Source of the DNA: Fibrobacteria bacterium
GTDB taxonomy: Bacteria > Fibrobacterota > Fibrobacteria > UBA11236
Direction of reading: 5' to 3'
NCBI GenBank assembly: GCA_043732185.1
Contig: JAYTHY010000128.1
Span: 1 to 50,955, forward strand
DNA: 50,955 nt
Part shown: piece after piece, positions 1 through 46,170 of the stretch
Numbering within the stretch: position 1 is the first letter of the stretch
Layout: every line of letters begins with the position of its first letter
Made by a program: the position numbers and the translations under genes
Notes under the pieces: generated by a model
Database searches by the model: none
What the model saw: the letters and a program-made list of their open reading frames with translations, nothing else
Told to the model about the DNA's origin: nothing

Positions 1-3000
1 GGGACTGTCCTGGCGCTGGGTTCGGGTGCCAAGCACCAAGTCACAGGCATCGGTGAAGCGTTTCCAAACATAATCGCTTTGGGCTTTTGGTACGGCTCCA
101 ATGCGACGCCAATCGCGTTGTAAATTGCGGATACGGGCGACGGCATCTTCACCAGGATTTTGGGCCAGGGCTTCGACTTCTGCGATGAGTTCAAGCTTCT
201 TTTCAAGGCTGATCTGCGGATCTTCTGCAGGCAATCCCAAGGCAATACGGCGTTCCTCGAAGAAAGCGTCACAGGCGGTGTGGAAGCGTTCCCAGATGGA
301 ATCGCTAACCTCGCGCGGTACGGGTCCGATTTTCTTCCATTCTCTTTGTAGGGCTTTGATTTTTTCGGTATTGTCGTTCCAATCGATACCGGCCAAACGG
401 AAACGTTCAATATCGACGGGGAGTTTCTTCTCGCTCCAAGCCGCGCGCGCGGCCGCCTCCGCTTCGGATGGGGTCTGGGAACTCATCATTTCGGCAATGA
501 AACAGAGGTCGGTTTTGCGTTGTAGATTGCCGCCGCGTTCGGAATCGCGTTGGGCGGAGTTTTCTTTGAGACGATCGAAAAAGCTGTCGCAGGCCGTGCG
601 GAATCGTTTCCACAGATCTCGATCCGATTCTCTAGGAGCCGGGCCCGTGGCCTTCCAGCGCTCCTGTAACGATTTGATTTTATCAATGGTGGATTTCCAT
701 TCAGAAGATCCACATATGGATTCCGCTTCCACGCAAATATCTTCTTTGATTTTTGCGTTTTCTTCTCGGACAGCTTGTTCTTCTCCAAAGCGGGCTTTGC
801 GGGCCTCAAAATACGCGTCGATGGGCTTGCGGAATCGTTCCCAAAGCACGTCTTCCACTTCCCTTGGTGCGGGACCCGTTTCCTTCCAAGTGGCTTGGGC
901 TTGCTTAATGCATTCGAATCGTTCGGCATCACCCGGCAAGGCGTCGAGACCTTCAACGAGTGCGCAAAGTGCTTCTTTCTTGGCCTGGTTCAAGGGCTTT
1001 TCCTGATTCATTTTTTCCAGGAAAACACGGCGCGCCTGGAAAAACTTTTCGCAGGCACCATGAAAACGCTGCCAAATGATATCGGCTTGATCGCGAGGCA
1101 CAGGTCCAATGGTTTTCCATTTTTCTTGTGCTTCTTTTATTTGTGTACCGGTGGTTTTCCACTCGGTGGAATCCTGCAAGGACTCGGCTATATCTACGAG
1201 GGCGAGCTTGCGGCTCAGGTTGTCTTGATTGTGTACATCTTTGCGATCGAAAAAGGCATTGCAGGCGGTTCGAAAGCGAATCCAAATGGCCTCGCTTTGG
1301 GCTTTAGGCACTGCGCCTAAACCCATCCATGCGCCTTGCGCTTCTTTAACCGTTTCCGTGGCGTCGCGCCAATCGATGTCTTCTAAAGCGACGAGCGCTT
1401 CGACTCGGGCGCAGATGTCTTCCTTAGTCTTGAGATTGCTTTCTCGTTCGACATCGAGTTCAGCGAAATACTCGCGACATTTTTCGTATAGCCCGTTACA
1501 CACCTTATTATAACGGTCCCAAAGAGCTTCGGAGCTGTCAAAAGAAACAGGCCCAACGGATTTCCATTCGGCTTGCAATTCTTTGAGGTGGACGACCATG
1601 GATTTTCGATCTTCCTGCGGCGCCAAGGCTTCGAGTTTGTCGCAAATGGACTGCTTGATTCTGAGGTTGGACCAACGTAGCCAATCCTGGGCTTCGCGGA
1701 ATCGCTCGATGAAGGCCAGGTAACGGCCGTGTAACTCATCCGCTTCCGGGCCTATGGGCGCTGGATGCAGCGATTTCCATTCACCATTAAGGATTTTGAA
1801 ATTTTTTTCCGCGCTCATCATATCCGAATTCTCGAGCAGAGTTTCAAGTTCCGGCAGCAGGGTGCGCATCCGTTGCAAGTTTACGGCGCGTAATTCTTCT
1901 AGCGAGGATTGAGTGGACGCCACAGCAGCTTCGAATCGGGCCCGAAGTTCTTCTTTACCGGCAAATGCACCGGCTGCATTGATGGCTTTATTCCACTCTT
2001 TGCGTAAATCACGGAACCGGTCCATGGCCTGGGTCGGGCTCAACTGGGCTAGAGCAATGGCCTCTTCGCAAAGGGTGGCAAGTCGGCCACCATGTTCCTT
2101 TTCTTCCGCTTGTCGACGGGCCAAGGATTCCTGGTCACGGGCTCGACGTTCCAGTTTTTCCATGGCGGAGCGATAGCGTTTCTGAAACTCTCCATCACGA
2201 CCGTCTCCGGCCGCACCTAAATTTTGGTATTGCTCGCGCAGTGCCCGGATTTCCGGAGCCTGAGCGCTGTCCGTAAATGCCCCTTCGCTGTCCACAGTTT
2301 CCGTGGATCCGCCAGCCGCTAGTATGGCTTCGAGACGAGTGCAGATGGCTTCCTTTTGGGCCAAGTTTTCGGAGGCGCGCTTTTCCTTTTCTTCCAGGGC
2401 CAATCGATCATTGCGCCATTTGGTAAAGTGCGACCGGAAATTTGCCAGGGAAGCATGGAAGCGAGCCAGTTTTTGGGCATCCGCTTGAGTGCCGCCAGCT
2501 AACAATTCGGCCAAGGCGGTTTCGGCGTCGTCGAGTTGGGCGCGGGTACTTTCCCAGTCGATAGCGGACGCGGGACCTTCGAGGGAGGCGCTGGCGCGTT
2601 CGGCCACACCTAAAACGAGACCCAATTTGGCGCGGTTGATACTGGCCACATCCGGGCCCTTTGTTGTCAGCAAGGACTTCAATCTTTCCTTGGCTGCAAT
2701 GCGGACGGCTTTGGATTTTGCACCTTTGGCAAGGCTTTCCAAGTGACCTTCGCGCGTGATTTTACCCAAGGCCATAAGCGCTAAGGAATCATCTTCCTCC
2801 ACCAGTGCTACGGATTGGAAGGCGCTGGCGTGAACCAGTTTTGGAAATGCCAACTTGCGAATTTCCAGGCTGGCGGCATACCGAGCCACGTCTTCAATAG
2901 CCCGTTGATCTTCCAAAATGGATTCCAGAGCGGCGGCACAACGCGCGACGGCACTGGGATCATTGGCTTCCGCTTTGGCGGCAGCGATTTGACTTTCCAC

Positions 3001-3240
3001 CCAGAGCTTCTGGGCCAGTTCCTTGACGGATTTATCCCGTGTTTGGTCACGCAGTTTCTTGAGCAGCAGCGGCTCTTTGACCTTGCGGGCTGCGGCTAGG
3101 CGGTTGGCGCTATCGCCATCCTCCAAGGCCAGGGTAAGTAGCAAAGGCTGCTGATCCTCTTCCAAAGAACGGATGGAGGCTGCGCGCACGGCTGGGTTGC
3201 TGTGTTTCCAATGGGGTTTGAAAAAATCTGTGAATGCCAT
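1..3240 (-). CDS. DUF349-repeat large alpha-helical protein, 3'-truncated by the window edge
   Basis: Absent from the ORF track because no stop lies inside the window. The minus-strand ATG at 3240 translates to MAFTDFFKPHWKHSNPAVRAASIRSLEEDQQ. Later segments show recurring W-x-x-x-G-P-x-P-(R/K) and LWxRFxxACDxFF motifs typical of DUF349 repeats. The overlapping plus-strand ORFs look like antisense shadows. Confidence 0.8.
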   Translation of the reverse strand, partial: MAFTDFFKPHWKHSNPAVRAASIRSLEEDQQPLLLTLALEDGDSANRLAAARKVKEPLLLKKLRDQTRDKSVKELAQKLWVESQIAAAKAEANDPSAVARCAAALESILEDQRAIEDVARYAASLEIRKLAFPKLVHASAFQSVALVEEDDSLALMALGKITREGHLESLAKGAKSKAVRIAAKERLKSLLTTKGPDVASINRAKLGLVLGVAERASASLEGPASAIDWESTRAQLDDAETALAELLAGGTQADAQKLARFHASLANFRSHFTKWRNDRLALEEKEKRASENLAQKEAICTRLEAILAAGGSTETVDSEGAFTDSAQAPEIRALREQYQNLGAAGDGRDGEFQKRYRSAMEKLERRARDQESLARRQAEEKEHGGRLATLCEEAIALAQLSPTQAMDRFRDLRKEWNKAINAAGAFAGKEELRARFEAAVASTQSSLEELRAVNLQRMRTLLPELETLLENSDMMSAEKNFKILNGEWKSLHPAPIGPEADELHGRYLAFIERFREAQDWLRWSNLRIKQSICDKLEALAPQEDRKSMVVHLKELQAEWKSVGPVSFDSSEALWDRYNKVCNGLYEKCREYFAELDVERESNLKTKEDICARVEALVALEDIDWRDATETVKEAQGAWMGLGAVPKAQSEAIWIRFRTACNAFFDRKDVHNQDNLSRKLALVDIAESLQDSTEWKTTGTQIKEAQEKWKTIGPVPRDQADIIWQRFHGACEKFFQARRVFLEKMNQEKPLNQAKKEALCALVEGLDALPGDAERFECIKQAQATWKETGPAPREVEDVLWERFRKPIDAYFEARKARFGEEQAVREENAKIKEDICVEAESICGSSEWKSTIDKIKSLQERWKATGPAPRESDRDLWKRFRTACDSFFDRLKENSAQRDSERGGNLQRKTDLCFIAEMMSSQTPSEAEAAARAAWSEKKLPVDIERFRLAGIDWNDNTEKIKALQREWKKIGPVPREVSDSIWERFHTACDAFFEERRIALGLPAEDPQISLEKKLELIAEVEALAQNPGEDAVARIRNLQRDWRRIGAVPKAQSDYVWKRFTDACDLVLGTRTQRQDSP

Positions 3241-9784: not shown

Positions 9785-10345
9785 ATGATAAAAATAGCGG
9801 AACAAATGGCCTTCTACCAATCCTACCATCGTTCAGCAGGTTGTAAGGCAACACATTTTTTCGGCGTGCCTTTGGTTACGTTTTCCATCTTAATCCCAAT
9901 GGGTTGGCTGTCCATTCCCCTCGCTGGAGTGCGGATTAGCTTTGCAATGCTTTTTGTCCTTTCCACTTTAACGTATTATGTTCGGTTGGAAAAAACCCTC
10001 GCAGTTATGATGGCTTTGGTCATTTTCCCTGTGGCAGTTTTTGCTGAATGGATTTCCCGCTTTCCCTTTCGAGACTCCTTTCTTGTATTTACCACTACAT
10101 TTATTCTAGGGTGGGGGCTTCAATTACTGGGACATGCGCTGGAAGGAAAGCGCCCTGCGTTGATGGATAATTTTTTTCCATCCATTTTCACGGCGCCCTT
10201 ATTTCTGGTGGCGGAAGTTTTATTTGGCCTGGGCTGGGGAAGTGATTTGCGATTGAAAATTGCGGCGATTGAAAAATCCTCGACTCAAATCAGGCGCGCT
10301 AGTACGGTTGATTTGAGAGAGCGGCAGCTCCAGAGTAAAAATTAG
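9785..10345 (+). CDS. DUF962 / Mpo1-like membrane protein (intact copy)
   Basis: YQSYH...THFFGVP and GWGLQLLGHALEGKRPA...APLFLVAE motifs with hydrophobic helices. Confidence 0.88.
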   Translation: MIKIAEQMAFYQSYHRSAGCKATHFFGVPLVTFSILIPMGWLSIPLAGVRISFAMLFVLSTLTYYVRLEKTLAVMMALVIFPVAVFAEWISRFPFRDSFLVFTTTFILGWGLQLLGHALEGKRPALMDNFFPSIFTAPLFLVAEVLFGLGWGSDLRLKIAAIEKSSTQIRRASTVDLRERQLQSKN

Positions 10346-10423
10346 TTCATGAGTTCCCGTGGAAGGTTTGCTTTTGCTCTGAACGTGTATGTTACCGCCA
10401 TAGCCTTCTACGATGGAGCGGAC
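10127..10423 (+). repeat. Left copy of 297-bp direct repeat flanking the biosynthetic island
   Basis: Aligns without gaps to 22067-22363 (offset 11940 bp). I counted 12 mismatches, about 96% identity. Confidence 0.96.
10220..10423 (-). pseudogene. Remnant 3' end of the histidine kinase gene (duplicate of 22160-22363)
   Basis: The minus strand reads SIVEGYGGNIHVQSKSKPSTGTHELIFTLELP..., matching the C-terminus of the kinase at 22160-23284, with no 5' part. Confidence 0.85.
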
Positions 10424-10518
10424 GACGTTCGGATGACAAGCTGAACTGAAATGCCGGGAGCCAACCCAGGCAGTCCGAGAGGCAGTGACCTAGATCAGAA
10501 TAGAGGATAGTGGATTTT

Positions 10519-10550
10519 TTTTGCTCACCGGATGTTTTGCTCACCGGATG
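10519..10550 (+). repeat. Perfect 16-bp tandem duplication TTTTGCTCACCGGATG x2 upstream of the island operon
   Basis: Read directly at 10519-10534 and 10535-10550. Confidence 0.9.
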
Positions 10551-10715
10551 GTTACGGTGCTGGTCCCCAAAACACCGGGCCGTAAGCGGAACCATGGCTA
10601 GAACTCAGGACCCAGAAAAAATTTCAGGTCCAATAATGTTTGGTGTAACTTAAAAAGTACCTGAGCCGTCTAAACACCAGAAACCCGAGCTATTTAAATG
10701 GGGAGAATTTTACGA

Positions 10716-13682
10716 ATGCTAAGGCATACTTTTAGTGATTACCGGAAATTTTGCAAACCGAAGCTGGCCGAGCTTCTCAGCAGCTTGAAATTGGACAAGG
10801 AATATTCCAGCGGACGTGGATGCATCCTGGTCACGTCCGAGGGCAAGGAAGTGGTGGATTTCATCGGTGGTTTCGGGGCGCTTCTATTGGGCCATAACCA
10901 CCCCGAGATTTGTGCTGCCGCCATGGAGAGAATCGAAAAGGCTTCGGTGGTGCATTCCCAGGTTTCCATCCATCCGGAATGCGCGAAACTGGCGCGGACT
11001 CTTTCAGAACTTACTCCCGGTGACGCCGACTACTGTGTCAATTTTTCGAATTCGGGTACGGAAAGCGTGGAAGCGGCCATCAAGCATGCCTATAAGGTCC
11101 ACTTCGATAAAATCAGAATTGAATATGAACGGCTGACGCGAGTATTGAATGACTTCTTCTATAAAATGGAATCGGAAAAATCAGATTTACCCCTGCCGGG
11201 CGGGAAAACCCTGGTCGATTTCCGGGACGACCTGGATGAATACAATCTGGCGCAACTTGAAGAGTTTCAAAATCATCCCGCCATCATCGCCTTCAAGGGA
11301 TCTTTCCATGGAAAGACCACATCCTCCTTGAAAATGACATTCAATAAATCCTATCGCGAAGGGTACGAAGGCTTGTCGGCGCTTAGGTCGATTTTCGTGG
11401 ACCCACTTGAGCCGGAACGGATTCCGGAAATCGTTTCCGAGGATATTTGCACTTTCCTTTATCCCAGCCTGGATGCGGGAAAAGTTGAATTGCGGCCCAT
11501 CAAGCTTACACGGATTATTGGCCTCATCCTGGAAACGGTACAGGGTGAAGGCGGTATCAGGCCCATCCCGATCGCCACCCTGGAATATCTAGCGGACCAA
11601 CATCCCCGACTGGGGGTGCCCTATCTCATTGATGAAATCCAGACCGGTTGCGGCCGACTTGGACATGTATACAGCTATGCGCGAACTCCCCTCAAAGCGA
11701 TTTGCCCCGAATACATAACCCTGAGTAAAGCGCTGGGTGGAGGATTGGTGAAAATTGGCGCGACCCTGATACGGGAAACCATATATGATCAGGATTTCGG
11801 GATCTTGCATACCTCCACTTTCGGGGAGGATGATTTTTCCGCGACCATTGCCTTGAAATTCCTTGAGATCCTGGGCCGCCAGGATGGAAAGCTGCTTCTC
11901 GAGGTGGAATCAAAGGGCATATTCCTGAAGGAAAAGCTGATTCAATTGGGAAAGGAATTCCCGGAATTGGTCAAGGAGGTCAGAGGAAACGGCCTGCTTC
12001 TGGGGTTGGAACTTACCGATCTCCGCAGTCAATCACCCTTCTTCCGCGCCAGCGGAAAGCAGGGGATTCTTTCGATCCTGATCGCAAGCTATTTGCTTGA
12101 GTACCATGGCATCCGTATTCTTGCCCCGCTTACGACCATGCTCAAAGGCAATCCGGGAAAGAACCGGCTGTCCATTCTGAGAATTCAACCTCCCGTCGCT
12201 ATTTCCGAATCACAAATAGAGGCATTGATTGCCGGGCTTCGGGAAGTCTTCAGGATAATCCGTCGTAACAATGAGTTCTGCCTCATCGCCCATTTGATGG
12301 AATGCCCCGTTTCCGCCGCCGAACGCAGCAATCCGATCCACCTGGAGGCCAAATGGCCCGTGCAGGATGAACATCGGCATATCGATTCGCGGACCGGTTT
12401 CATCGTCCATCCCACCAATGTCAAGAATCTGAAGGAATATTATTTCCCGTCCTTTGGTGAATATTCCTTCGAGGAAAACCAATTTCCGATTTGGTGGAAT
12501 GCCATCAGCCGGTTCCTGGAACCTATCCAGGTCAAAAAAGATTTCATTTCCTCAAATGATTTCGTCATCGAAAATAGCTTGGTCTTCGTTCCTTATTTGC
12601 CCGAGTATATCACGGCAGCCAAAGCCCCTCACCTTATGAAGGAAATGCGTGACAAGGTTCAGGATGCCGTTATTTTGGCCAAGGAATTGGGGGACGAGAA
12701 TATACCAGTAAGCATGGTGGGTCTTGGAGCCTACACATCCATCATTACCAATAATGGCCTGACCATCAACGATTATGAAATGTGTATTACGACGGGAAAC
12801 GCATATACCACCGCCCTGACCCTGCTGGGCCTGATCCAGGCCTCCGATTCGCAAGGCCTGCAATTTGAATCCTGCGAAACAAGTGTAATCGGCGCGGGAG
12901 GAAATATTGGGCAAGTCGTCTCGCAGCTCCTGGCCCCTAGGGTCGGCGGCCTAACCCTAGTCGGCAGCGGACGCAAACTCAGCGGCAAAAGGCTTTTGTC
13001 CGTAAAGAAGGATTGTCTGACGGAAATTTTCCGGCAAATCCGAAAGGAAAGGACAGAAGGCATTGATGCTGAGGGTTCCGCAATGGGGACTCTCGGCAAG
13101 GAGATCTTCGCTGTCCTGGATTCTGGATGTGGTTATGGCATTCTATTGGCCAAAGCCTATTCCTTATTGGAAGTGGGGGCCCCTGGTCCCGTTTATTCAG
13201 CCGCATGCGAGGACGCTTTTTGTTGCGAAGGAGATGGTTTCGCCACTGCCCGAATCCGGTATTCGGACAGCCTGGATTCGATTGCAGATTCCGATATAGT
13301 TGTGCTTGCCACGAATTCCCATGACGATAAATTGATCACCTCGGAAAGGGTGAAGCCCGGGGCCATCGTATGTTGTACATCGGTTCCCGGAAACCTGTCT
13401 CCGGAAGGCTGGGAAGAGCATTTGGCCTTCGATGGTGGCTTGGCCAAACTACCGGAAGGATCCAGGATTCGGTTCGTGGGAATGCCGCGCGGAGGCAATA
13501 GCTATGGCTGCCTGGCGGAAACGCTTTTGCTGGGTTTCGATGGCCATAACCACTCCTTTTCAAAGGGAGTGCTTTCAACGGAAATGGTCTATCGGACCTT
13601 GGAAATGGCCGACACCCATGGCTTCAGCCTGGGCGAATTAAGAATGAATGAAGAAAGGGATGTCAAAGCATGTTCGATTTAA
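10716..13682 (+). CDS. Class III PLP aminotransferase fused to a C-terminal acyl-ACP/thioester reductase-like domain (TamH-like architecture)
   Basis: N-terminal half has DFIGGFGALLLGHNHP, NSGTESVEAAIK, GSFHGKT, ETVQGEGG, DEIQTG, TLSKALGGG (PLP Lys) and HTSTFG. C-terminal half has FIVHP, VGLGAYTSII, TTGNAYT, Rossmann GAGGNIG and YGCLAETLLL (acyl-ACP-reductase-type Cys). A GGAGA RBS precedes ATG 10716; the alternative start is 10698. Confidence 0.85.
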   Translation: MLRHTFSDYRKFCKPKLAELLSSLKLDKEYSSGRGCILVTSEGKEVVDFIGGFGALLLGHNHPEICAAAMERIEKASVVHSQVSIHPECAKLARTLSELTPGDADYCVNFSNSGTESVEAAIKHAYKVHFDKIRIEYERLTRVLNDFFYKMESEKSDLPLPGGKTLVDFRDDLDEYNLAQLEEFQNHPAIIAFKGSFHGKTTSSLKMTFNKSYREGYEGLSALRSIFVDPLEPERIPEIVSEDICTFLYPSLDAGKVELRPIKLTRIIGLILETVQGEGGIRPIPIATLEYLADQHPRLGVPYLIDEIQTGCGRLGHVYSYARTPLKAICPEYITLSKALGGGLVKIGATLIRETIYDQDFGILHTSTFGEDDFSATIALKFLEILGRQDGKLLLEVESKGIFLKEKLIQLGKEFPELVKEVRGNGLLLGLELTDLRSQSPFFRASGKQGILSILIASYLLEYHGIRILAPLTTMLKGNPGKNRLSILRIQPPVAISESQIEALIAGLREVFRIIRRNNEFCLIAHLMECPVSAAERSNPIHLEAKWPVQDEHRHIDSRTGFIVHPTNVKNLKEYYFPSFGEYSFEENQFPIWWNAISRFLEPIQVKKDFISSNDFVIENSLVFVPYLPEYITAAKAPHLMKEMRDKVQDAVILAKELGDENIPVSMVGLGAYTSIITNNGLTINDYEMCITTGNAYTTALTLLGLIQASDSQGLQFESCETSVIGAGGNIGQVVSQLLAPRVGGLTLVGSGRKLSGKRLLSVKKDCLTEIFRQIRKERTEGIDAEGSAMGTLGKEIFAVLDSGCGYGILLAKAYSLLEVGAPGPVYSAACEDAFCCEGDGFATARIRYSDSLDSIADSDIVVLATNSHDDKLITSERVKPGAIVCCTSVPGNLSPEGWEEHLAFDGGLAKLPEGSRIRFVGMPRGGNSYGCLAETLLLGFDGHNHSFSKGVLSTEMVYRTLEMADTHGFSLGELRMNEERDVKACSI

Positions 13683-15520
13683 GAAGCCGGGCGGAAGCCA
13701 CTGCATTCAAAGTCCATAAATCCATTTCCAATGTCTCTGAAATTGTGGACCTACACCTGAAAACCTATGGAACCCGGCCAGCCATCCGCTTCGATGTCGG
13801 CACCGGATACCGGACCATGAATTTCCAAGAATACTTGGGATATATCCAAGCCATGATCAGTTTTCTGGAAGAGCAGGATGAAAAACAAAAGGTGATTGCG
13901 ACGCTATGCAAGAACCGGGTGGAATGGGATATGGTGGCCATGGCCTCCTTTTACACCGCCAATATCATTTTTCCGTTGGACACCAAAACCAATCCCGTGG
14001 AATTGGATCACCTACTGGGGTTGTGCAAGCCGGACTATATCCTGACATCCTTTGCGCAGTTGCCCCGGGTGCGGGAACTGTCCACCCGCCACCGACTCCA
14101 TGCAAAGATTCTGGTCGCGGATATCTTCGAGGTCTTCGAGGATATCGGTTTCGAAAAGCCGAAGCTGCTGTCGGGTGAATCGAGAATGAAGGACATTCTG
14201 ATCGAATTCCAAGGTAGACCTATTTCACCGAGTCCCTTGCTCGACTTTCCCAATACCGTATTGGGATACTATCCCACTTCGGGCACCACGTCCCTCCCCA
14301 AGATAGTGAAGATCACGCACGGGAATATCGTCGCGGAAGTAAACTGCGCCTTTGAGGTATTGAACCTGCGGACCAATGAGGATCTGCTCAATATCGGACC
14401 GTATACCCATATCGCAACCTTGGTCGAATTCCTGGTGACCAAGACGCGCGGCTTCACGGTGACGTACTTCACGCGCGAACCCGACGACGACGATGTGCTG
14501 GAAGGGGAGATTGAAAAGCTCAAGAAGCTGGACGTGCGCATAAAGGCCTTGATGGCTGTTCCGAAATTCTGGATTTACCTGCTAAAGGAGGTCCTGGAGG
14601 AGATGAAGAACAAACCCGTGCTACGGAATCTATACCAACATCTCACCAGCATAGAGAAAAATGGCCAGCTGCATGATATCGGAACCATAGAAAAGGCCAA
14701 ATTAACTGCCGTTCGGATCCTGCTGCGCAATAAGCTGGGCGGTTATTTCAGTTATGGCATCTCTTCTTCCATGAAAATCGACGCGGCCATAGTGGAGATA
14801 TTCGGAAAACTCGGCATCACGGTACTGGATATCTACGGTGCAACGGAATGTTCCGGAATCATATCCCGTAACAAACTCAATGAAATCCATCCCGGAAGTT
14901 GCGGAAAAATCATAGATGCCTTGGATTACCGGCTTTCCGGGCTCAGGAAGATCAAGGGGGTCGATCAGGAAGTCGGAATCCTGGAGGTGAAAGGTCCCAC
15001 CATCGCGCATTCCTATCTGAAGGCGGACAATGGCGAAGAACCCATGGCCCTTGACGGAGACGGTTACCTTGCCACCGGCGATTTGGCCTGGGTGGATGAA
15101 CGTCGGTTGGTCCACCTAATTGGTCGGGAGAAGGAACTCATCCATTGGAAGGATGGCTCTTATATCGATCCGCAATACCTGTCCAATCTGCTAGTTCGCA
15201 GTATTTTCATCAAGGATGCCATGGTCGCACATACCCATCCCGAGAACGATTTCTTGAGTGTCTTCGTCTATCCCGATTTCAAAAGGATAAGCAAGGATCC
15301 CACATGGCGGACGGAAATCCATACCGGTGTCAGCGAGGACGAGGCGCTCAAAGCCCGTATTTTGGATGCCATTCGATATGCGGAATCGGTTTCCGGGATT
15401 TCGGCCTCGCTGGACAAGGATGCCGTTTTTATACTCCCGAACAAGTTGGAGCGTACGCCTACCCATAAGATCAAATTCCTCTTTGAAATGAAACGCCTCC
15501 ACCTCGCAAAAAAGATATGA
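13670..15520 (+). CDS. AMP-dependent acyl-adenylate-forming enzyme (long-chain acyl-CoA synthetase-like)
   Basis: YPTSGTTSLPK (A3), YGATE (A5), LATGD (A7), GREKE (A8) and RTPTHKIK (A10) motifs. Overlaps the upstream gene. Confidence 0.85.
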   Translation: MFDLRSRAEATAFKVHKSISNVSEIVDLHLKTYGTRPAIRFDVGTGYRTMNFQEYLGYIQAMISFLEEQDEKQKVIATLCKNRVEWDMVAMASFYTANIIFPLDTKTNPVELDHLLGLCKPDYILTSFAQLPRVRELSTRHRLHAKILVADIFEVFEDIGFEKPKLLSGESRMKDILIEFQGRPISPSPLLDFPNTVLGYYPTSGTTSLPKIVKITHGNIVAEVNCAFEVLNLRTNEDLLNIGPYTHIATLVEFLVTKTRGFTVTYFTREPDDDDVLEGEIEKLKKLDVRIKALMAVPKFWIYLLKEVLEEMKNKPVLRNLYQHLTSIEKNGQLHDIGTIEKAKLTAVRILLRNKLGGYFSYGISSSMKIDAAIVEIFGKLGITVLDIYGATECSGIISRNKLNEIHPGSCGKIIDALDYRLSGLRKIKGVDQEVGILEVKGPTIAHSYLKADNGEEPMALDGDGYLATGDLAWVDERRLVHLIGREKELIHWKDGSYIDPQYLSNLLVRSIFIKDAMVAHTHPENDFLSVFVYPDFKRISKDPTWRTEIHTGVSEDEALKARILDAIRYAESVSGISASLDKDAVFILPNKLERTPTHKIKFLFEMKRLHLAKKI

Positions 15521-15530
15521 GGGCCAAGGC

Positions 15531-15815
15531 ATGAAAACTAGCTTTGAAAATCCCATGCTTGGGGAATTGATAGCGCTTTGCCTTCAGGAGGGCATTCTCG
15601 ATTCGAATAATGAAATGGGCTTTGAGAAACGAGATCTGATCGATGAAGGTCTTATCGATTCGATGGGCCTTTTGTCCCTGCAATCCTTAATCGAGGATGC
15701 GTACGGGCTCCTGATACCCCAGGAACTTTTCGTCATGGAGCTGAGGACCCTGGAAAGCATTGCCGGGCATCTCGTTTCCGCCCAAGTCACATCGAAAAAT
15801 AAAGTCGACAGGTAG
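15531..15815 (+). CDS. Acyl carrier protein
   Basis: 94 aa and acidic, with DLIDEGLIDSMGLLSL containing the phosphopantetheine Ser. Confidence 0.85.
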   Translation: MKTSFENPMLGELIALCLQEGILDSNNEMGFEKRDLIDEGLIDSMGLLSLQSLIEDAYGLLIPQELFVMELRTLESIAGHLVSAQVTSKNKVDR

Positions 15816-15822
15816 CGCAATC

Positions 15823-17490
15823 ATGAATATCCTCGAAGCCGTAGCAGAAAACCTAAAGATCCGTAACCCAGAATGGCGGTTTCCCGAGGAGAGCAATGCA
15901 CTCTCGCTTTCCGAAATCGAAACCCGCTCAAGGGTATATGCAGGACGTTTGGCATCCCTGAACGTGGCCACCGGCGATAGGGTCGGTATCCTCTTGGACA
16001 ATTGCTCCGAATACGCTCCATTATTGCTTGGCATTTGGCGGCTCAATGCTGTCGCCGTGCCCTTGCGGCCCAAGCCCGGGAAGTATTTCGATCTTGCCGA
16101 ATATCTCCATTCTGTGCAGGAGGTCTGCCGCTTCCGGGCAATCATAGTCGCAGCCGGGGCGGATCCGCAGGCCGTCCGACATTGTTCAGAGGCCTTTGCA
16201 ACTCCGATACTCTTTCTCCCAGAGTTGCTCTTGCCCGGCATGCCGGAATCGAAGGTTAATGTGCCGGAGATTCCCGGCATCCTGCCGGAAGACGCGGCAA
16301 TAATCCAATTTTCTTCAGGTACGACGGGCACACCCAAAGGGGTCGTGGTTACGCATGCGATGATGGTGGCGCAAATTGAGCAAATCAATTGTGAAGTCCG
16401 TTCCGGATGCAATGGATCAAAGGTGACGTCATCGGCTTCATGGCTGCCCTTCAATCACGATATGGGCCTTTTCATTGGTCTATTGAATCCACTATTCGTT
16501 GGCGCGGACAACTTGCTGGCGTCTCCCAGGTACTATATGTTTAAACCCAGGCGCTGGTTCCAGATGATGCATGAGTACAATACCACTTTGCATTTCACCA
16601 CGAATTCCGCACTGTTGGGCTCCTTCAATTCGCTCGCCACGATTGAACCCGGCACCCTGGACCTTTCCAATCTCTATATGTATATCGGCGCCGAAAAGGT
16701 TATGCCCCAGGTGCTTGAATCCGCATACCGAATCCTCGCGCCTTTTAAAATGGAAAAAAGAAATCTACGCATAGGATATGGAATGGCGGAAAATACACTG
16801 GGGGCGGCCTCAACGAATAAGCCGGAGATCAGCGTTCGCCGATTCCATATCGGGGAAAAGGGCAACCTGACACCCACCCTGGATTTCGGACCCGGCATCC
16901 ACGAAGTCGTTGCTTTCGGGTCTCCCCATGCAGGCACACGCATTACCATTAGGGACGACCAGGGAGAGATCCTTCCGGAATTACAGCTTGGAGAAATCAC
17001 TATTGAAGGGCCTTGCGTGATGGCAGGCTATTTCCGGAATGCTGCGGCGACACGCCTGAGTCTGGACGGTTCCCGATTGCGTACTGGCGATATAGGATTC
17101 ACCTATGAAAACGAGTACTATTTCCATTCCCGGAAGGACGACCTTTTGATTATCGGCGGAAAAAACATTGTTCCCGATGAAATCGAGGCTCAGGTTGAAA
17201 CCATGGCCTTTATAAGGCCCTCCTGCACGGTTCTGGTGGGAGTGCATGAGCCCATTACTGGTGAAATGCAGCTCCGGTTGCTGGTGGAACCCAGACTTCC
17301 TGCAGGAACCAAATTCGGGCTAGAGTATAGACGGCTCATCCAACAGAAGGTATTTGAAACCTCCGGCGTGTTGATCCAATCCATCCAAGCCTGTGCAAGC
17401 GGCTCGGTCGAAAAGACATCGAGCGGCAAAAAGCGCAGAAAAGTGATTTCCCAAAGGCTGGTTTGCGGAGAAATCGTTTTGGCGGATTAG
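15823..17490 (+). CDS. Fatty acyl-AMP ligase (FAAL-like)
   Basis: QFSSGTTGTPKGV, SWLPFNHDMGL, GYGMAENTL, LRTGDIGF, RKDDLLIIGGKN and KTSSGK motifs. Lies directly after the ACP. Confidence 0.88.
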   Translation: MNILEAVAENLKIRNPEWRFPEESNALSLSEIETRSRVYAGRLASLNVATGDRVGILLDNCSEYAPLLLGIWRLNAVAVPLRPKPGKYFDLAEYLHSVQEVCRFRAIIVAAGADPQAVRHCSEAFATPILFLPELLLPGMPESKVNVPEIPGILPEDAAIIQFSSGTTGTPKGVVVTHAMMVAQIEQINCEVRSGCNGSKVTSSASWLPFNHDMGLFIGLLNPLFVGADNLLASPRYYMFKPRRWFQMMHEYNTTLHFTTNSALLGSFNSLATIEPGTLDLSNLYMYIGAEKVMPQVLESAYRILAPFKMEKRNLRIGYGMAENTLGAASTNKPEISVRRFHIGEKGNLTPTLDFGPGIHEVVAFGSPHAGTRITIRDDQGEILPELQLGEITIEGPCVMAGYFRNAAATRLSLDGSRLRTGDIGFTYENEYYFHSRKDDLLIIGGKNIVPDEIEAQVETMAFIRPSCTVLVGVHEPITGEMQLRLLVEPRLPAGTKFGLEYRRLIQQKVFETSGVLIQSIQACASGSVEKTSSGKKRRKVISQRLVCGEIVLAD

Positions 17491-17522
17491 GTTTGGAAAG
17501 CGGATAAGGGTGGGGGGTTAGT

Positions 17523-19892
17523 ATGTTGGCGCGATTCTGTTTGAAGCGGGGACCGGTCATTATCGGTTTTTGGTCCGTTCTGGTATTGATTTTCCTTGCG
17601 GCCATCGGGCATCGGGTACTCTCCATGGATCCCGTCGTGGACAATTCCGTTGGGGTATGGTTCATGCAGGACGATCCCGAACTTAAAGCTTATGAACGCT
17701 TTAACAAGGAGGTTGGGGAAAGGGAGTGGTCCCTGCTCCAGGTCGAAACGTCCTCGATTGGAAATCCAGAATTTCTTCGCGAACTCAGCGCAATTACAGC
17801 ACGCATCGGCAAACTGGCGCATGTCACCAAAGTCGTCTCCATGACGAATGTACGGGACAGCAAGGGCCTCGAAGACGGTTCCCTGGAATACGACAAGTTG
17901 TACCCCGCCAAGGATTCGCTGAGCCTGATCACGGACGATCAATCGATCCGTTTCCGGAAGGCATTGGCGGGCAATCCCATTTTCGAAGGGACCATCCTGA
18001 AATCCGGAGATGACCATCATTCCATGGTTCTCTTCCAGAACGATAACTTGATCCGGGATGTCCACCCTTACCGCATCGAGATGGTCGATTCCATAAAGGC
18101 GATTCTTCGCGGTTATGCCACCGTGACCGGATTTTCCCTGGCAGGCACGACCATGGTCAATGCGGAATTGAATCGCTCCGCATTGAAGGACGTGATTCTG
18201 TTTTACGTACTGGTCACCTTGTTGCTGGTCATTTTCGGCGCTTTCTCCCTGAGAAACTTCCGGGATCTCGCCGTGCTTCTGGCCGTAGTCACGGGCTGCG
18301 TTGTGCCGCCCATGGGCTTGCTCGCGCTTTTGGGCATTCCCTACAATATGGTGACCATCATGTTGCCGCCGATCCTGGTATCCCTCTGTGTCTGCGACAT
18401 CATCCACCTTATAAACGGTTTCCATTATGAGAGGAAATTCCATTCCTCCGCCCAAGCCATGGAAACAGCCATTGGGAAAATCTTTTCAGCCTGTATCTGG
18501 ACTTCGGTAGTCACCATGGCCGGATTTCTATCCTTGGCTTTTTCCACTGTCATGCCTATTTGGCAGATGGGCATCTATTCTTCCTTCGGGATTTTCATGG
18601 CCTGGTGCATTACCATGACCTTGGCGCCCGTGATGCTGGTCCGGTTTTGGCCGCTCGGAAACCTGGATAGCGGCAGTCAGGCCTCCGACGGATCCAAGGA
18701 AGCGGGTTTGTATGCGCGTAAATTCGTACCCATCCTTTTCGGCAGATTACGCCCGCTTTGGCTTTTCATTTTCGCCCTTATGTTCCTGCCTTTATTCGGT
18801 ATCTCCAAGCTGAGAGTCGATACCGACTACACAAAATTTTTTGGTAAAGACGCGGATTTGACCCGGGCTTATGCGACCCTCGAAAAAACGGGATTCTCCC
18901 AGAACGTGCTTTCCTTGGTGCTCCGTTTTCCAGAAGGCAAAACCTATTCGTCCAAGGACTATTTTGCCCGGGTAAGATCCTTTGAGAAGCAGGTTTCGAA
19001 CCTGCCCGAGGTCCGGAAAATATTATCCCTTACCCAATTGGTGGAGCGCATCGATTTGGCCTTCAATAACGATGCCGACACCGAAGGAATTGGAGTTGGC
19101 GACAATCAAGCGAGCAGCCCAGTCGTCGATAGGATTTCCGGATATTCGCCGGAACAAATCGACCAGCTGCTCTTTCTGGGGGAGCTTTCCGGAAATGACG
19201 ATATCGCCGATTTCTCTAATAAGGAAAGGAATCGGGTCCAAATCCAGGCCTTGACCCCATACTTGAGTTCGAGGAAGTTAGAGGATTTTAAACGAAAGAT
19301 CAATTCATTGGCTACGGAAACCCTGCCTGCCGATCTGACCGTCGAGGTACTGGGCGCCACAGTATTGTGGGCCAATATGGATAAGCAGATCAGCCATACT
19401 CAGGTTGCGTCTTTTCTGGCTTTGGCCATAGTCTTCCTCATTCTATTGCCCCTGATATTCCGAAGCGTGCGCCTGGGTCTTTTGGGTGTTGTCATTAACT
19501 CACTCCCACTGGCCATGACCTTCGGGGTCATGGGACTGCTGGGCATCAAGATAAACATGGCCACTGCCTTGATTGGTGGTGTCTCAATCGGCTCGACCGT
19601 GGACAGTACTATTTTCTTCATCAACAGATTCCAGCAAGGCTTAAAAGAGGGTCTGGAATGGGATGCTGCCGTGCGCAATGCCCTGATTACTGTGGGAGAC
19701 GGAATTATCATGACCTCGGTCATTCTCGCGGGAGGGTTTTGCTGCATGGCCGTGTCCGGCTTTTTACCTACCGCCCAATTCGGCATTTTCACCACGTTTA
19801 CCATAGTCAGCGCCGTCTACTTGGATTTGTTCATCGATCCGTTGCTGCTGACTATATTGAATTTGAAAAAAAAGCCGGTTGCCAAGGCCTAA
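17523..19892 (+). CDS. MMPL/RND-family inner-membrane transporter
   Basis: Twofold repeat of a transmembrane helix, a large periplasmic loop and a transmembrane bundle, with acidic TM4/TM10-type motifs (VCDIIH, VDSTIF). Confidence 0.88.
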   Translation: MLARFCLKRGPVIIGFWSVLVLIFLAAIGHRVLSMDPVVDNSVGVWFMQDDPELKAYERFNKEVGEREWSLLQVETSSIGNPEFLRELSAITARIGKLAHVTKVVSMTNVRDSKGLEDGSLEYDKLYPAKDSLSLITDDQSIRFRKALAGNPIFEGTILKSGDDHHSMVLFQNDNLIRDVHPYRIEMVDSIKAILRGYATVTGFSLAGTTMVNAELNRSALKDVILFYVLVTLLLVIFGAFSLRNFRDLAVLLAVVTGCVVPPMGLLALLGIPYNMVTIMLPPILVSLCVCDIIHLINGFHYERKFHSSAQAMETAIGKIFSACIWTSVVTMAGFLSLAFSTVMPIWQMGIYSSFGIFMAWCITMTLAPVMLVRFWPLGNLDSGSQASDGSKEAGLYARKFVPILFGRLRPLWLFIFALMFLPLFGISKLRVDTDYTKFFGKDADLTRAYATLEKTGFSQNVLSLVLRFPEGKTYSSKDYFARVRSFEKQVSNLPEVRKILSLTQLVERIDLAFNNDADTEGIGVGDNQASSPVVDRISGYSPEQIDQLLFLGELSGNDDIADFSNKERNRVQIQALTPYLSSRKLEDFKRKINSLATETLPADLTVEVLGATVLWANMDKQISHTQVASFLALAIVFLILLPLIFRSVRLGLLGVVINSLPLAMTFGVMGLLGIKINMATALIGGVSIGSTVDSTIFFINRFQQGLKEGLEWDAAVRNALITVGDGIIMTSVILAGGFCCMAVSGFLPTAQFGIFTTFTIVSAVYLDLFIDPLLLTILNLKKKPVAKA

Positions 19893-19941
19893 AAAACACC
19901 CGTGGCCATGGTCAATGGATAAACTGCAGGAAGGGATTGTA

Positions 19942-20721
19942 ATGAGAAAAGTATTGTGGCTCACGTATTCACTCCTGCTGCTGGGGAGCGTTCCGGCTTG
20001 GCCGGCGCCTCGCGACGGACTGGGCATTTTCACCGAGGCAGCTGCAAGGGATGCCGGCTATGGGGATCAAAGTGCCGACATTGTCATGACTATGAAGGAT
20101 AAATCAGGAAAAGAGGATTTCCGAGCCATGCGGCTTGCCAATCTGGAAATCGGCCCCGGTGAATATAGGAGCATGCTTGTCTTCGATAAGCCATTGGATG
20201 TCGCGGGAACTTCCCTGCTGACCTATGCCCATGCCAAAGCGGCATCGGATCAATGGATTTACCTTCCCGCCTTTAAGAGAGTGAAGAAGATTTCGGATGC
20301 GAATAAAACTGGGTCCTTCATGGGGAGCGAATTCACCTTTGAAGACATCAATTCAATGAATATCCAGATCGCTAAATTCCAGTATACACTTATTGGAACC
20401 GAGGTCCGCGAAGGTGCCATAGGCTGGACTGTGGAGCGCGATCCAATAGATGAAAACTCCGGTTACAAAAGGCAAGTGGTCTGGATAGACACGCTGAAAT
20501 TCACGGTCGGGAAAATCGAATTCTTCAATCGGGAAAACAAGCATGTAAAGACCCTGACTTTAACTGGATATGAGAAGTTTCTGGACAGGTATTGGCGGCC
20601 CAAGGAAATGAAAATGGAAAACCTGGAAAACGGCAAGGGCACACTTTTGACCTGGAACCGCTATCGATTCAAAAAAGGACTTAAAGAAAAGGACTTCGAC
20701 ATATCGATGTTGAAGCGGTAA
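19942..20721 (+). CDS. LolA-like periplasmic 'outer membrane lipoprotein-sorting' protein
   Basis: Signal peptide and DQWIYLPAFKRVKKI...GSFMGSEFTFEDI motif. An AGGAAGGG RBS precedes ATG 19942. Confidence 0.85.
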   Translation: MRKVLWLTYSLLLLGSVPAWPAPRDGLGIFTEAAARDAGYGDQSADIVMTMKDKSGKEDFRAMRLANLEIGPGEYRSMLVFDKPLDVAGTSLLTYAHAKAASDQWIYLPAFKRVKKISDANKTGSFMGSEFTFEDINSMNIQIAKFQYTLIGTEVREGAIGWTVERDPIDENSGYKRQVVWIDTLKFTVGKIEFFNRENKHVKTLTLTGYEKFLDRYWRPKEMKMENLENGKGTLLTWNRYRFKKGLKEKDFDISMLKR

Positions 20722-21992
20722 TGAAACTGTTTCTGAATTTACATTGGACGACGGTTCCCCAGTTCGTCATTCTGGTTGGGCTTTGCCTCTGGTCCGGTCG
20801 GGGAAAGGTTGTGGCCCAAGGCCTGGAACTCGCGGGAAGCGTATCGATTGAATCCAGGCTTTACCATGACAAAGCCCTATTACCCGGGCAGTCGTCGGTC
20901 AAAAACCAGCCTTCCCTTCCCGGCCGGGCCACGCATTATCCATCCGCTGCGCTCGAACCAAAATGCAGCTTCAAATGGGAATCGACGGGAGCGGACTTTG
21001 AACTGCAACCTTACCTTCGTTTTGACCGCTATGATTCAAACCGCACCATGCTGGATTTACGGTCTGCCAAGGCCGGATTGGCCATGGGGTCGTGGTATTT
21101 GAAAGCCGGCGTGGATGTGACCTTTTGGGGGGTGCTTGAATTCCAAAACCTAGTGGATATCCTGAACCAAACCGACCTGCCTTATGATTTTCTTTCCAAG
21201 CGCAAACTGGGCCAACCCATGATTAATATCAGCCTAATCACGGATTGGGGGAACCTTGATGCCTATGTCTTGGAATATTTCCGGCCGAAAACTTTTCCTG
21301 GACCTGCCGGTCGGTCCCGTCCACCTTTCCCGGTTTCCCATTCACCCGTGTACGAATCACAATTAGGCGATCGGCAGCCGGATTTTGCCTTTCGATTTTC
21401 CCGGACGCTTGGAGCGTTTGAAATTGCCGCTTCCCATTTTTTCGGAACCAGCCGGGATCCGGAAATCACCGCCGTTCCGGATCCGGCAAGTGGCGTATTG
21501 CTTTCAACTCGCTATCCTCTGCTTAACCAATCCGGACTGGAGGTTCAGTGGACCTTGGACAATCTGATTTTGAAAACCGAGGATGTCCTCCGGCTCAAAA
21601 GGGATTTCACCTGGCAATCGGCTGCCACCGGACTGGGGATGGAATACAATGTAGGAGCCCTTCTGGGCCGGACTTGGGATTTTTCCGTCTTGGGCGAATA
21701 CCTATACGACCGCAGGAATGAAATCTTGCTCACCCCTTTCACGCGGGATGTATTCGTTGGATTGCGGGTCGGCTGCAATGATTCGCGTAGCACGGAAGTT
21801 ACTCTTGGATTGGATTGGGATCACAGGCGTGGCCGCCTTGAAATCCTTATGGGGGAATTGGGCACCCGCCTGACCGATCGCCTCAAGATCTGGATTTCCG
21901 GACGTTACTTGACCAAGTTGGAAAAGGCTTCGCCCTTTTATCCTCTTCGAAATGATGGTTATACCAAATTGCAGTTCGAACTATTCCTTTGA
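20721..21992 (+). CDS. Putative outer-membrane beta-barrel protein
   Basis: Signal peptide, alternating beta-strand pattern, VTFWGVLEFQNLVDILNQ...KLGQPM motif and aromatic-rich C-terminal strand. TAATG-coupled to the upstream gene. Confidence 0.72.
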   Translation: MKLFLNLHWTTVPQFVILVGLCLWSGRGKVVAQGLELAGSVSIESRLYHDKALLPGQSSVKNQPSLPGRATHYPSAALEPKCSFKWESTGADFELQPYLRFDRYDSNRTMLDLRSAKAGLAMGSWYLKAGVDVTFWGVLEFQNLVDILNQTDLPYDFLSKRKLGQPMINISLITDWGNLDAYVLEYFRPKTFPGPAGRSRPPFPVSHSPVYESQLGDRQPDFAFRFSRTLGAFEIAASHFFGTSRDPEITAVPDPASGVLLSTRYPLLNQSGLEVQWTLDNLILKTEDVLRLKRDFTWQSAATGLGMEYNVGALLGRTWDFSVLGEYLYDRRNEILLTPFTRDVFVGLRVGCNDSRSTEVTLGLDWDHRRGRLEILMGELGTRLTDRLKIWISGRYLTKLEKASPFYPLRNDGYTKLQFELFL

Positions 21993-22066: not shown

Positions 22067-22285
22067 CTGGGCCATGCGCTGGAAGGAAAGCGCCCGGCGT
22101 TGATGGATAATTATTTTCCATCCGTTTTCACGGCGCCCTTATTTCTGGTGGCGGAAGTTTTATTTGGCCTGGGCTGGGGAAGTGATTTGCGATTGAAAAT
22201 TGCGACGATTGAAAAATCCTCGATTCAAATCAGGCGCGCTAGTACGGTTGATTTGAGAGAGCGGCAGCTCCAGAGTAAAAATTAG
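22067..22285 (+). pseudogene. Remnant 3' half of the DUF962 gene
   Basis: Reads LGHALEGKRPALMDNYFPSVFTAPLF...QSKN and lacks the first ~114 codons of the intact gene. Confidence 0.85.
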
Positions 22286-22363
22286 TCCATGAGTTCCCGC
22301 GGAAGGTTTGTTTTTGCTTTGAACGCGTATGTTACCGCCATAGCCTTCCACGATGGAGCGGAC
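22067..22363 (+). repeat. Right copy of 297-bp direct repeat
   Basis: About 96% identical to 10127-10423. Confidence 0.96.
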
Positions 22364-23284
22364 AATGAACAAGCCCAACCCGCGACGAACCTCTCCACGC
22401 TTTGTCGTAAAGAAGGGTTCAAATAACCGGTCCACATCCTGTGGGTGACACCCATTTCCATCATCCTCAATAGTTGCCAGTAGTCGGGCACCATCGGTTT
22501 TAAATCGGGTCACAATATTTCGTGCTGCAGCTTCCAATGCATTTCGATATAGATTTAAAAAAACCGGTTCCAGTCGATCCGCATCGCCCAGGCCATAATC
22601 ACTTTTCACCTGGGCATCCCAATGGAATCCGTTCAACTGTGTATGAAAATGTGTTTTTGCGCAAGCCCGGGCCATAACTACCAATTGGATCGGTCGTCGC
22701 ATTTTAGATTTGGCCGTAGACCCTAAGTCTTTTGAAAACAGTTCCAACTTTTCCACCACTCTATCAATGCGGTCAAGAATCTCTTTATTCTCCGCCGAAG
22801 CACCACGTATCCGCAGAAGTTTGGAGTTGCCCTTTAAAGTGCAGATATGATTTTTGATTTCATGGCCCAATACGGCAAAATTTCTTTCGCCATGCGTAAT
22901 GACATTTAAATTTTTAGGCAGGGGTACGCTGGGCTTTCTCTTAATACCCATACGCATACCCAAACCAAGGCTCAATTCCCGGCTCAAGTTATATCGTGAA
23001 ATCGCCCAAAAACCGATCGTAGCTACACTCAAGAAAATGACGGCAGGGATTAAAGGGCGAATCGACACCACTCCGAGTAGCGGTAGAGCTATACAGGCTG
23101 ATAACGCCCCTATTGAAGCATAAAAAAATCCTATGCGAACCTTGGACTTAGCCATCTCATTCAAGCTACCCATTTGCGCCATTGCTGAACCTGAAGGCGC
23201 AGCAATATCCGCTCTATATTTGAGAGCGCCTTGGCCTCTGCCAAGGTGATGGGGTTCATCTATATCACATGCTTCCATATCCAC
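22160..23284 (-). CDS. Membrane-anchored sensor histidine kinase (HisKA + HATPase_c)
   Basis: H-box LGHEIKN, N-box NLYRNALEA, G1 DDGNG, F-box FEPFFTTK and G2 GLGL, with two hydrophobic helices. The start is uncertain (possibly 23155). Confidence 0.85.
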   Translation of the reverse strand: MDMEACDIDEPHHLGRGQGALKYRADIAAPSGSAMAQMGSLNEMAKSKVRIGFFYASIGALSACIALPLLGVVSIRPLIPAVIFLSVATIGFWAISRYNLSRELSLGLGMRMGIKRKPSVPLPKNLNVITHGERNFAVLGHEIKNHICTLKGNSKLLRIRGASAENKEILDRIDRVVEKLELFSKDLGSTAKSKMRRPIQLVVMARACAKTHFHTQLNGFHWDAQVKSDYGLGDADRLEPVFLNLYRNALEAAARNIVTRFKTDGARLLATIEDDGNGCHPQDVDRLFEPFFTTKRGEVRRGLGLFIVRSIVEGYGGNIRVQSKNKPSAGTHGLIFTLELPLSQINRTSAPDLNRGFFNRRNFQSQITSPAQAK

Positions 23285-46003: not shown

Positions 46004-46170
46004 ATTTACTCCCCTAATGGTGGGCATATCAATGAGGTAAAGCGCTCTTTAGATCAATCGATTAATTATCTCACCGAAGTATGGGATGTCAAGATCCCCT
46101 TGGGCCAACATCGGTGTCAATGGGTGGTCAATTATTTGTGAAATCAGGGTTCTTTTTGGGTTACGGTGAC

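Follow-up and report, generated by a model that had tools for sequence, protein, structure and literature searches.

A mobile seven-gene cassette that probably makes an amine-based lipid in a Fibrobacteria bacterium

The stretch of DNA analyzed here (contig JAYTHY010000128.1 of a Fibrobacteria bacterium; 50,955 nt, hereafter the window) contains a seven-gene cluster on the + strand between positions 10698 and 21992 that probably makes an amine-based lipid not previously described. The cluster opens with a transaminase–reductase fusion, followed by an adenylate-forming enzyme of an isolated family that we call ANL2, an acyl carrier protein (ACP), an enzyme of the fatty acyl-AMP ligase (FAAL) type and three envelope proteins. 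The fusion is classified by its sequence as a transaminase–acyl-ACP-reductase of the TamH/KecF type, so the amine-forming step is already known; what is new is the uncharacterized partner family ANL2, which lies in a mobile cassette. We regard the route from FAAL through ACP, reductase and transaminase to a primary amine as very likely, and it is the best-supported part of the mechanism. Beyond this point, we propose with a probability of about 45% that ANL2 couples the alkylamine to a second acid, which would give an exported N-alkyl amide. The cassette moves horizontally, as indicated by flanking direct repeats, an empty site in a related genome and patchy presence among genomes.

The transaminase–reductase fusion and its acyl supply

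The fusion gene (10698..13682, +, starting at 10698 or 10716) encodes a class III transaminase at approximately residues 1-525 and a thioester reductase resembling acyl-ACP reductase (AAR) at approximately residues 555-985. The N-terminal half matches PF00202 (E 1.4e-57), with CrmG as the best match by both sequence and fold and PigE also close. A fold search with the whole fusion listed transaminases alone, as that one domain filled the list, so the reductase half was examined by profile instead. This half matches both cyanobacterial AAR (6JZU; profile E 1.9e-22, single-sequence E 3e-5) and PigE (4PPM; profile E 2.1e-21, single-sequence E 3e-8), with Cys938 aligned to Cys294 of AAR. Among 41 aligned homologues chosen from the 120 matches listed, the pyridoxal phosphate (PLP) lysine Lys344, the glycines of the GxxGxxG motif at 732-738 (Gly732/735/738) and the catalytic Cys938 are all invariant. 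A first-pass annotation of this DNA, made from the letters alone, had proposed TamH-like conversion of acyl-ACP through an aldehyde to an amine, and both the conserved residues and the AAR and PigE matches support that prediction.

TamH forms the tail of tambjamine YP1 in Pseudoalteromonas tunicata and has the same arrangement of an N-terminal class III transaminase of PLP fold I and a C-terminal AAR-like reductase with GxxGxxG and Cys. The likeness is one of layout and residue positions, with K340, G707-713 and C887 of TamH standing in the places of K344, G732-738 and C938 of the window fusion (PMC9594044). TamH converted C12-ACP to the amine with NADH, while C12-CoA gave no product (PMC9594044). 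An adenylating enzyme and an ACP supply the acyl chain in TamA/TamH as well, but the window has a separate FAAL and ACP, a second ANL family and an envelope module. Because the fusion is of the TamH/KecF type and its PLP lysine, NAD(P)H motif and cysteine are invariant, we count the predicted steps from FAAL and ACP to aldehyde and alkylamine as known chemistry. In prodigiosin PigE (PDB 4PPM), both domains are homologous to those of the fusion but occur in the opposite order, as had been pointed out, and the fusion scores 294.8 bits against a cut-off of 850 with the PigE equivalog model NF053554. A preprint on a Streptomyces tambjamine describes separate reductase and transaminase enzymes (10.1101/2025.08.11.669332).

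The putative acyl supply consists of the ACP gene (15531..15815, +; Pfam PP-binding), with an attachment site at Asp-Ser44, and the FAAL-type gene (15823..17490, +, the longest open reading frame starting at 15760; Pfam AMP-binding). FAALs activate fatty acids and load them on ACP. The best NCBIfam matches of the window enzyme are PRK07768, PRK09192 and FAAL models, none of which reaches its cut-off, and the Asp-Ser of the ACP is invariant in 32 of 32 aligned rows. Two matches to the phosphopantetheinyl transferase family were found in the genome, in which all seven cluster genes are single-copy. The FAAL is 37% identical to the N-terminal domain of P0072, a natural single polypeptide of 1490 residues that joins FAAL, transaminase and reductase with no carrier domain; its source files it under a sea-spider name, and it is probably bacterial DNA within a sea-spider assembly. 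ACP and FAAL sequences also share one open frame in another locus (L105:11864-13789), a possible natural fusion.

The ANL2 family and its loci

ANL2 (13670..15520, +; Pfam AMP-binding), the proposed amine-acylating ligase, belongs by sequence to an isolated family that arose from long-chain acyl-CoA-synthetase-like proteins. Searching its profile against 1.84 billion cluster representatives returned one full-length cluster at 1004 bits and then fragments, and the next full-length proteins after the family scored at most 231 bits. The P-loop, YGxTE, TGD, hinge Arg and A10 Lys motifs together with an ANL fold place it in the ANL superfamily, with the A10 lysine (Lys600) kept in 42 of 46 sequences. 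Its structural model (pLDDT 85.5) matches many ANL enzymes about equally well (Z 25-31, 13-21% identity), so the fold does not name a function, and in a test for long-chain acyl-CoA synthetases its best NCBIfam score was 100.3 against a cut-off of 476. In a comparison of 46 family members with the 106 nearest outside relatives, the adenylation motifs are retained and the differences fall around the second half-reaction. The A8 glutamate, present in 104 of the 106 relatives, is serine in all 46 ANL2 sequences; SGG(A) has become SSS(M), (E/Q)GYG has become D(I/V)YG, GKN..PxE(I/L)E has become G(S/T)Y.DPQ..S, and there is an acidic insertion at 267-273. By alignment to luciferase, the SSS, D(I/V)YG and A8 Ser positions and the acidic insertion presumably lie next to the pocket for the acid and the tunnel for the nucleophile.

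ANL2 is tightly linked to the fusion. A fusion scan of species genomes gave at least 569 matches, of which the 79 best loci were kept. Of these, 18 have a fusion match of at least 42%, and ANL2 lies directly downstream in 17 of them, cut or broken in four (L006, L010, L011 and L016). In the exception, L019, only the first 200 fusion residues matched and ANL2 is absent; this close homologue breaks off after approximately 400 codons, and the next gene looks recombinase-like by eye (L019:9962-12576). ANL2 was found in none of the 62 loci with more distant or truncated fusions (L018-L079), where scores reached at most 48 bits. When metagenomes were scanned with ANL2 alone, 65 loci were found, of which 57 have the fusion directly upstream and 7 begin inside or at ANL2; L168 is a 183-residue ANL2 piece at a contig end with no fusion. 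Fusion thus precedes ANL2 in 57 of the 58 informative loci found by ANL2 alone. In full-length genome matches, ANL2 is the more conserved of the two (51-63% identity versus 42-56% for the fusion). The 82 ANL2 loci in total, forming 57 groups at 90% identity, come from at least seven phyla (Pseudomonadota, including Kangiella taiwanensis, Nitrospirota, Nitrospinota, Acidobacteriota, Gemmatimonadota, Myxococcota and Spirochaetia), and cultured carriers include K. taiwanensis and K. sediminilitoris.

Gene presence was counted in 23 non-redundant loci with at least 2.5 kb of left and 4 kb of right flank. FAAL and ACP occur together, both in 13 loci (the ACP in 10 by cut-off and in 3 by manual inspection) and neither in 10, while MMPL was found in 17 (16 plus 1), the LolA-like gene in 9 and the barrel in 4. 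The conserved core is therefore the fusion and ANL2, with MMPL commonly included, and FAAL/ACP, LolA-like and barrel genes are optional; the notion that all seven genes form a conserved unit does not hold, although the exact seven-gene order of the window recurs in L105, L106 and L117. Two loci lacking the usual FAAL have another adenylating enzyme directly upstream of the fusion, of a different FAAL type in one (L014:8225-10015) and acyl-CoA-synthetase-like in the other (L015:8044-9978). Additional genes in the K. taiwanensis cluster (L002:8317-22900) encode a ferredoxin-type oxidoreductase, a fatty acid desaturase and FabH-like and DUF1302 proteins, and its MMPL belongs to a different lineage (22% to that of the window). 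Clustering of neighboring open reading frames in the 82 loci, which is noisy and includes antisense frames, gave no further recurrent enzyme and no recurring hydrolase or beta-oxidation gene. In a quick tree of 42 fusion rows, which leaves out the split fusion of L015 and the characterized enzymes and carries no claim on the order of events, ANL2-linked fusions form one clade (SH-aLRT 100), FAAL/ACP carriers form an 11-row subclade within it (98) and koreenceine (kec)-like rows are a separate branch.

Fusions without ANL2 can have a different partner. Among the 62 ANL2-free loci, 9 contain an ATP-dependent enzyme of the PPDK family, directly behind the fusion in 6, and no such enzyme was found in the 82 ANL2 loci. 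We take the domain set of these enzymes to be that of PigC/TamQ. Examples are at L018:10614-12488, L021:12597-14783, L026:12898-15504, L032:7268-9643, L051:12861-15593, L064:12845-15448 and L067:6850-9567. Some of the PPDK-type loci also have FAAL/ACP, UbiA-like or CarS-like genes, with no pyrrole genes among the scanned neighbors, and the gene content suggests another orphan type of amine-lipid cluster.

Organization, envelope module and known relatives

As the first-pass annotation had described, all seven genes are present on the + strand and closely packed, with gaps of -13, 10, 7, 32, 49 and -1 nt from fusion to barrel. Pfam assigns Aminotran_3, AMP-binding, PP-binding, AMP-binding, MMPL and LolA_like/DUF1329 to the first six in order and found no domain in the last. 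Pfam and NCBIfam searches of the seven genes also agree with the earlier statement that ketosynthase (KS), condensation and thioesterase domains are absent. A promoter and terminator scan stayed at chance level (12 versus 11.4 and 18 versus 14.7).

The envelope module that had been described is present. It begins with an MMPL/RND inner-membrane transporter (17523..19892, +; Pfam MMPL) with 11 hydrophobic segments in a simple hydropathy scan, followed by a LolA-like/DUF1329-like periplasmic protein (19942..20721, +; PF17131 E 1.6e-52) with an N-terminal hydrophobic leader. The last gene (20721..21992, +) is probably a DUF1302-like outer-membrane beta-barrel, a call based on language-model features that place it beside DUF1302/porin clusters (0.97); homologues occupy the same slot in L003, L105, L106 and L117. 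From knowledge of the MMPL family (PMC11713862), the module would export rather than import. Similar modules of MMPL/RND, DUF1329 and DUF1302 proteins, and the BstABC system, also combine an MMPL protein, a periplasmic carrier-like protein and an outer-membrane protein beside lipid-metabolism genes (PMC11713862; 10.1101/2020.07.04.188060). BstB and BstC, however, have other folds than the LolA-like and barrel proteins of the window, and these sources leave the cargo and direction of DUF1302/DUF1329 modules unsettled. In one further locus, MMPL and LolA-like sequences share an open frame (L148:12036-15311), a possible natural fusion.

The cluster differs from the known biosynthetic types that use such fusions. 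Tambjamine and prodiginine clusters combine a PigC/TamQ-type condensing enzyme with bipyrrole genes. No such condensing enzyme was found in the cluster, PPDK-type queries from four distant loci gave only short mobile-domain hits in the genome, and Pfam identified no bipyrrole genes among the genes of the window, with other pyrrole genes not searched genome-wide. The earlier observation that pig/tam genes are missing is thereby extended, but a pyrrole-free setting is not in itself new, as the clusters of KecF (koreenceine; PMC6498172) and PP_2782 (Pseudomonas putida; PMC10829540) share both the domain order and the lack of pyrrole genes. Those are type II polyketide synthase clusters with four KS genes and ketoreductases, and their amine cyclizes. 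In contrast, the window cluster has no KS, and KS queries against the 82 ANL2 loci found only the FabH-like gene in L002, so the koreenceine pattern of several KS or chain length factor genes and ketoreductases beside the fusion does not apply. A kec-like locus, L038, also has DUF1302, LolA-like and MMPL genes. In agreement with the first-pass annotation, no description of a cluster of this composition was found in the literature searched, with MIBiG, antiSMASH and most subscription journals outside that search.

Candidate products of the cassette

In the mechanism that we propose, the FAAL would activate a fatty acid and load it on the ACP, with housekeeping acyl-ACP serving where FAAL and ACP are missing. 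The reductase would then take the acyl chain on Cys938 and free the aldehyde with NAD(P)H, and the PLP domain would aminate it to a primary alkylamine, as shown for TamH and as predicted for this fusion from conserved residues and fold. ANL2 would adenylate a second, probably aliphatic, carboxylic acid, and attack of the alkylamine on the adenylate would give an N-alkyl amide, a step suggested by gene position and pathway logic. The MMPL, LolA-like and barrel proteins would finally carry the product to the outer membrane or outside. ANL2 appears free for another step because, in clusters with FAAL and ACP, only the reductase could use the acyl-ACP. The natural polypeptide P0072 ties FAAL rather than ANL2 to the reductase. 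An amide is the best reading because characterized pathways pass the amine on, ANL2 fills the slot of the PPDK-type enzyme, and amide formation with amines is known for ANL enzymes (PMC6677021, PMC10804368; amine capture was uncatalyzed in PMC6677021). The close linkage of ANL2 to the fusion, its stronger conservation and its altered residues around the second half-reaction also count in favor of this reading. Amide-bond synthetases such as McbA/ShABS (PMC10804368) and CfaL are likewise stand-alone ANL enzymes, in which an amine captures the acyl-adenylate. The ANL2 model aligns with 6H1B at Z 26.7 and with 7A9J at Z 27.9, but at approximately 15% identity these enzymes are no closer to ANL2 than other ANL enzymes are. 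More tentatively, the cassette could be a transferable unit for a two-chain N-alkyl fatty amide. It would produce each of the two halves, which the ANL2 family would join and the MMPL, LolA-like and barrel proteins would deliver to the outer membrane. Such a product would be the nitrogen counterpart of a wax ester, and its amide would run opposite to that of N-acyl amino-acid lipids.

Several observations weigh against this proposal. In the main alternative, ANL2 would feed the reductase by passing an acyl group to Cys938 directly or via a carrier. FAAL and ACP would then be a second feeder added later in one subclade, and the free alkylamine would be exported by MMPL or used by enzymes encoded elsewhere. 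The invariant partner of the fusion is indeed ANL2 and not FAAL. Among the 10 of 23 loci without this FAAL and ACP, ANL2 is the sole adenylating enzyme seen in 8; three genomes of this kind, whose completeness is not established, have no FAAL match at E 1e-20. The FAAL-less lineages (Acidobacteriota, Gemmatimonadota and Myxococcota rows) also fall outside the FAAL/ACP subclade in the quick tree. The closest outside relatives of ANL2 are long-chain acyl-CoA-synthetase-like proteins, some of which, among 16 scanned, also carry ACP and acyltransferase domains, and adenylation domains of carboxylic acid reductases give the longest structural alignments (540-541 residues, Z approximately 28, tied with many ANL enzymes). 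The A8 lysine is only partly lost in ANL2 (Lys in 10 of 46 and Lys or Arg in 26 of 46, versus 88 of the 106 outside relatives), and we set its loss aside as a marker for no CoA use because it is partial. Where CoA ligases have a His, McbA has Asp201, a residue suggested to activate the amine (PMC10804368); ANL2 keeps a histidine at this position (His247, in 45 of 46). A predicted complex of ANL2 with the reductase domain scored 0.55 against 0.00 for the best control, weak support for a direct contact that fits feeding at least as well as amide formation. Solved complexes reached this mark in 116 of 157 cases and mismatches in 2 of 215, although at 0.60 or below there are only 18 of the 157 together with both mismatches; the runs agree in at least 88% of contacts, with partner pLDDT of at least 80. 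On the other side, two feeders for one reductase would be redundant in 13 of the 23 loci, and P0072 joins FAAL to the fusion, while no fusion of ANL2 into a longer protein turned up when such forms were sought, which is weak evidence. Cyanobacterial AAR works from synthase-made acyl-ACP with no dedicated activating enzyme. KecF does so as well (PMC6498172), and ANL2 is not a likely supplier of acyl-CoA because TamH needs acyl-ACP and gave no product from acyl-CoA (PMC9594044). On balance, we consider it less likely that ANL2 is a feeder than that it forms an amide; if it is a feeder, this would be a case of carrier-independent feeding of an acyl-ACP-reductase domain.

ANL2 could also join the amine to an unusual acid, either short, branched or dicarboxylic, or to the carbamate of the amine itself to form a urea, so that the product would be a polar-headed alkylamide or a dialkylurea instead of a two-chain wax amide. 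Three positions that are mostly glycine in the outgroup have side chains in ANL2, namely Glu253 (46/46; Gly in 60/106), Ser366 (45/46; Gly in 103/106) and Ile/Val388 (46/46; Gly in 100/106). By luciferase alignment, these presumably lie at or near the acid pocket. Small or aliphatic residues occupy the remaining pocket positions (Ala249, Ala/Gly296, Gly396), however, so a long tunnel may simply be re-routed. In the code of nonribosomal peptide synthetases, an Asp marks activation of alpha-amino acids, and its absence after His247 argues against such a substrate. We judge an unusual acid to be quite improbable. Even less probable is a catabolic module in which barrel, LolA-like and MMPL proteins import long-chain amines or amides and the fusion works in reverse, from amine through aldehyde to thioester. 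Transaminases are reversible, and growth of P. putida on fatty esters requires DUF1302/DUF1329 and an RND gene (10.1101/2020.07.04.188060). Loading by FAAL and ACP is biosynthetic, though, as are all characterized fusions of the TamH/KecF type; the lack of a recurring hydrolase or beta-oxidation gene in the 82 loci also argues against uptake, and the desaturase, ferredoxin-type reductase and FabH-like genes of the Kangiella cluster would tailor or build acyl chains.

Should N-alkyl amide formation by ANL2 be correct, it would define a bacterial lipid built on an amine, together with a new family of ligases for coupling long-chain amines. It would also give a defined cargo to MMPL/LolA-like/DUF1302-like modules and provide a genetically encoded route from fatty acid to fatty amine or amide for biocatalysis. 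Kangiella relatives that lack the cassette are natural controls for the cultured carriers.

Mobility and surroundings of the cassette

The cassette lies between two direct-repeat copies of 297 nt that are 96% identical (10127..10423 and 22067..22363, both +), a feature that the first-pass annotation had missed. The left copy holds the 3′ end of an intact Mpo1-like gene (9785-10345); the right copy holds the duplicated Mpo1-like 3′ end and overlaps the 3′ end of a convergent histidine-kinase gene (22160-23284, -). Because the repeat holds their 3′ ends, both genes stay whole. A genome of the same genus, G002, has one repeat copy with the two flanks joined directly, which is an empty site; diagnostic sites in the repeat copies do not tell whether it is ancestral or a deletion product. 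Another genome, G008, has the same filled site, with cassette genes 98.3-99.4% identical to the window and flanking genes 81.7-98.4%. These identities suggest a recent exchange of the cassette, with two flanking genes also reaching 98%. ANL2 was found in only 2 of 296 genomes of the phylum and in 2 of 61 genomes of the Kangiella family. Runs X1 and X3, one of which may be the source sample, show doubled read depth across the repeat, and no joint skipping the cassette was found in contigs of four DNA runs, in which rare variants are dropped. No integrase was found inside the cassette, and ANL2 had no plasmid matches at E 1e-30. Base composition was not used as evidence of transfer (GC 0.48-0.52 versus 0.49 for the genome), and the third-position GC of the cassette (0.56-0.64) is only slightly high against a mean of 0.53 and standard deviation of 0.06 in a crude set of open reading frames. 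We rejected the Mpo1-like gene as a pathway member, as it is present in 12 of 14 other genomes of the genus and absent from the 79 and 65 related loci.

Approximately 174 nt upstream of the fusion (10443-10618) are missing in G008 and in the contig of one run, forming a variable piece in the likely promoter region. Elsewhere in the window, an open reading frame of at least 1080 residues (1-3240, -) has internal repeats of approximately 77 residues that account for a 41-nt repeat family at 254-1284. It may resemble DUF349 repeat proteins. At 38048-46027 (-), a 2659-residue TPR-repeat protein adjoins GH95 and GH30-like glycoside hydrolase genes.

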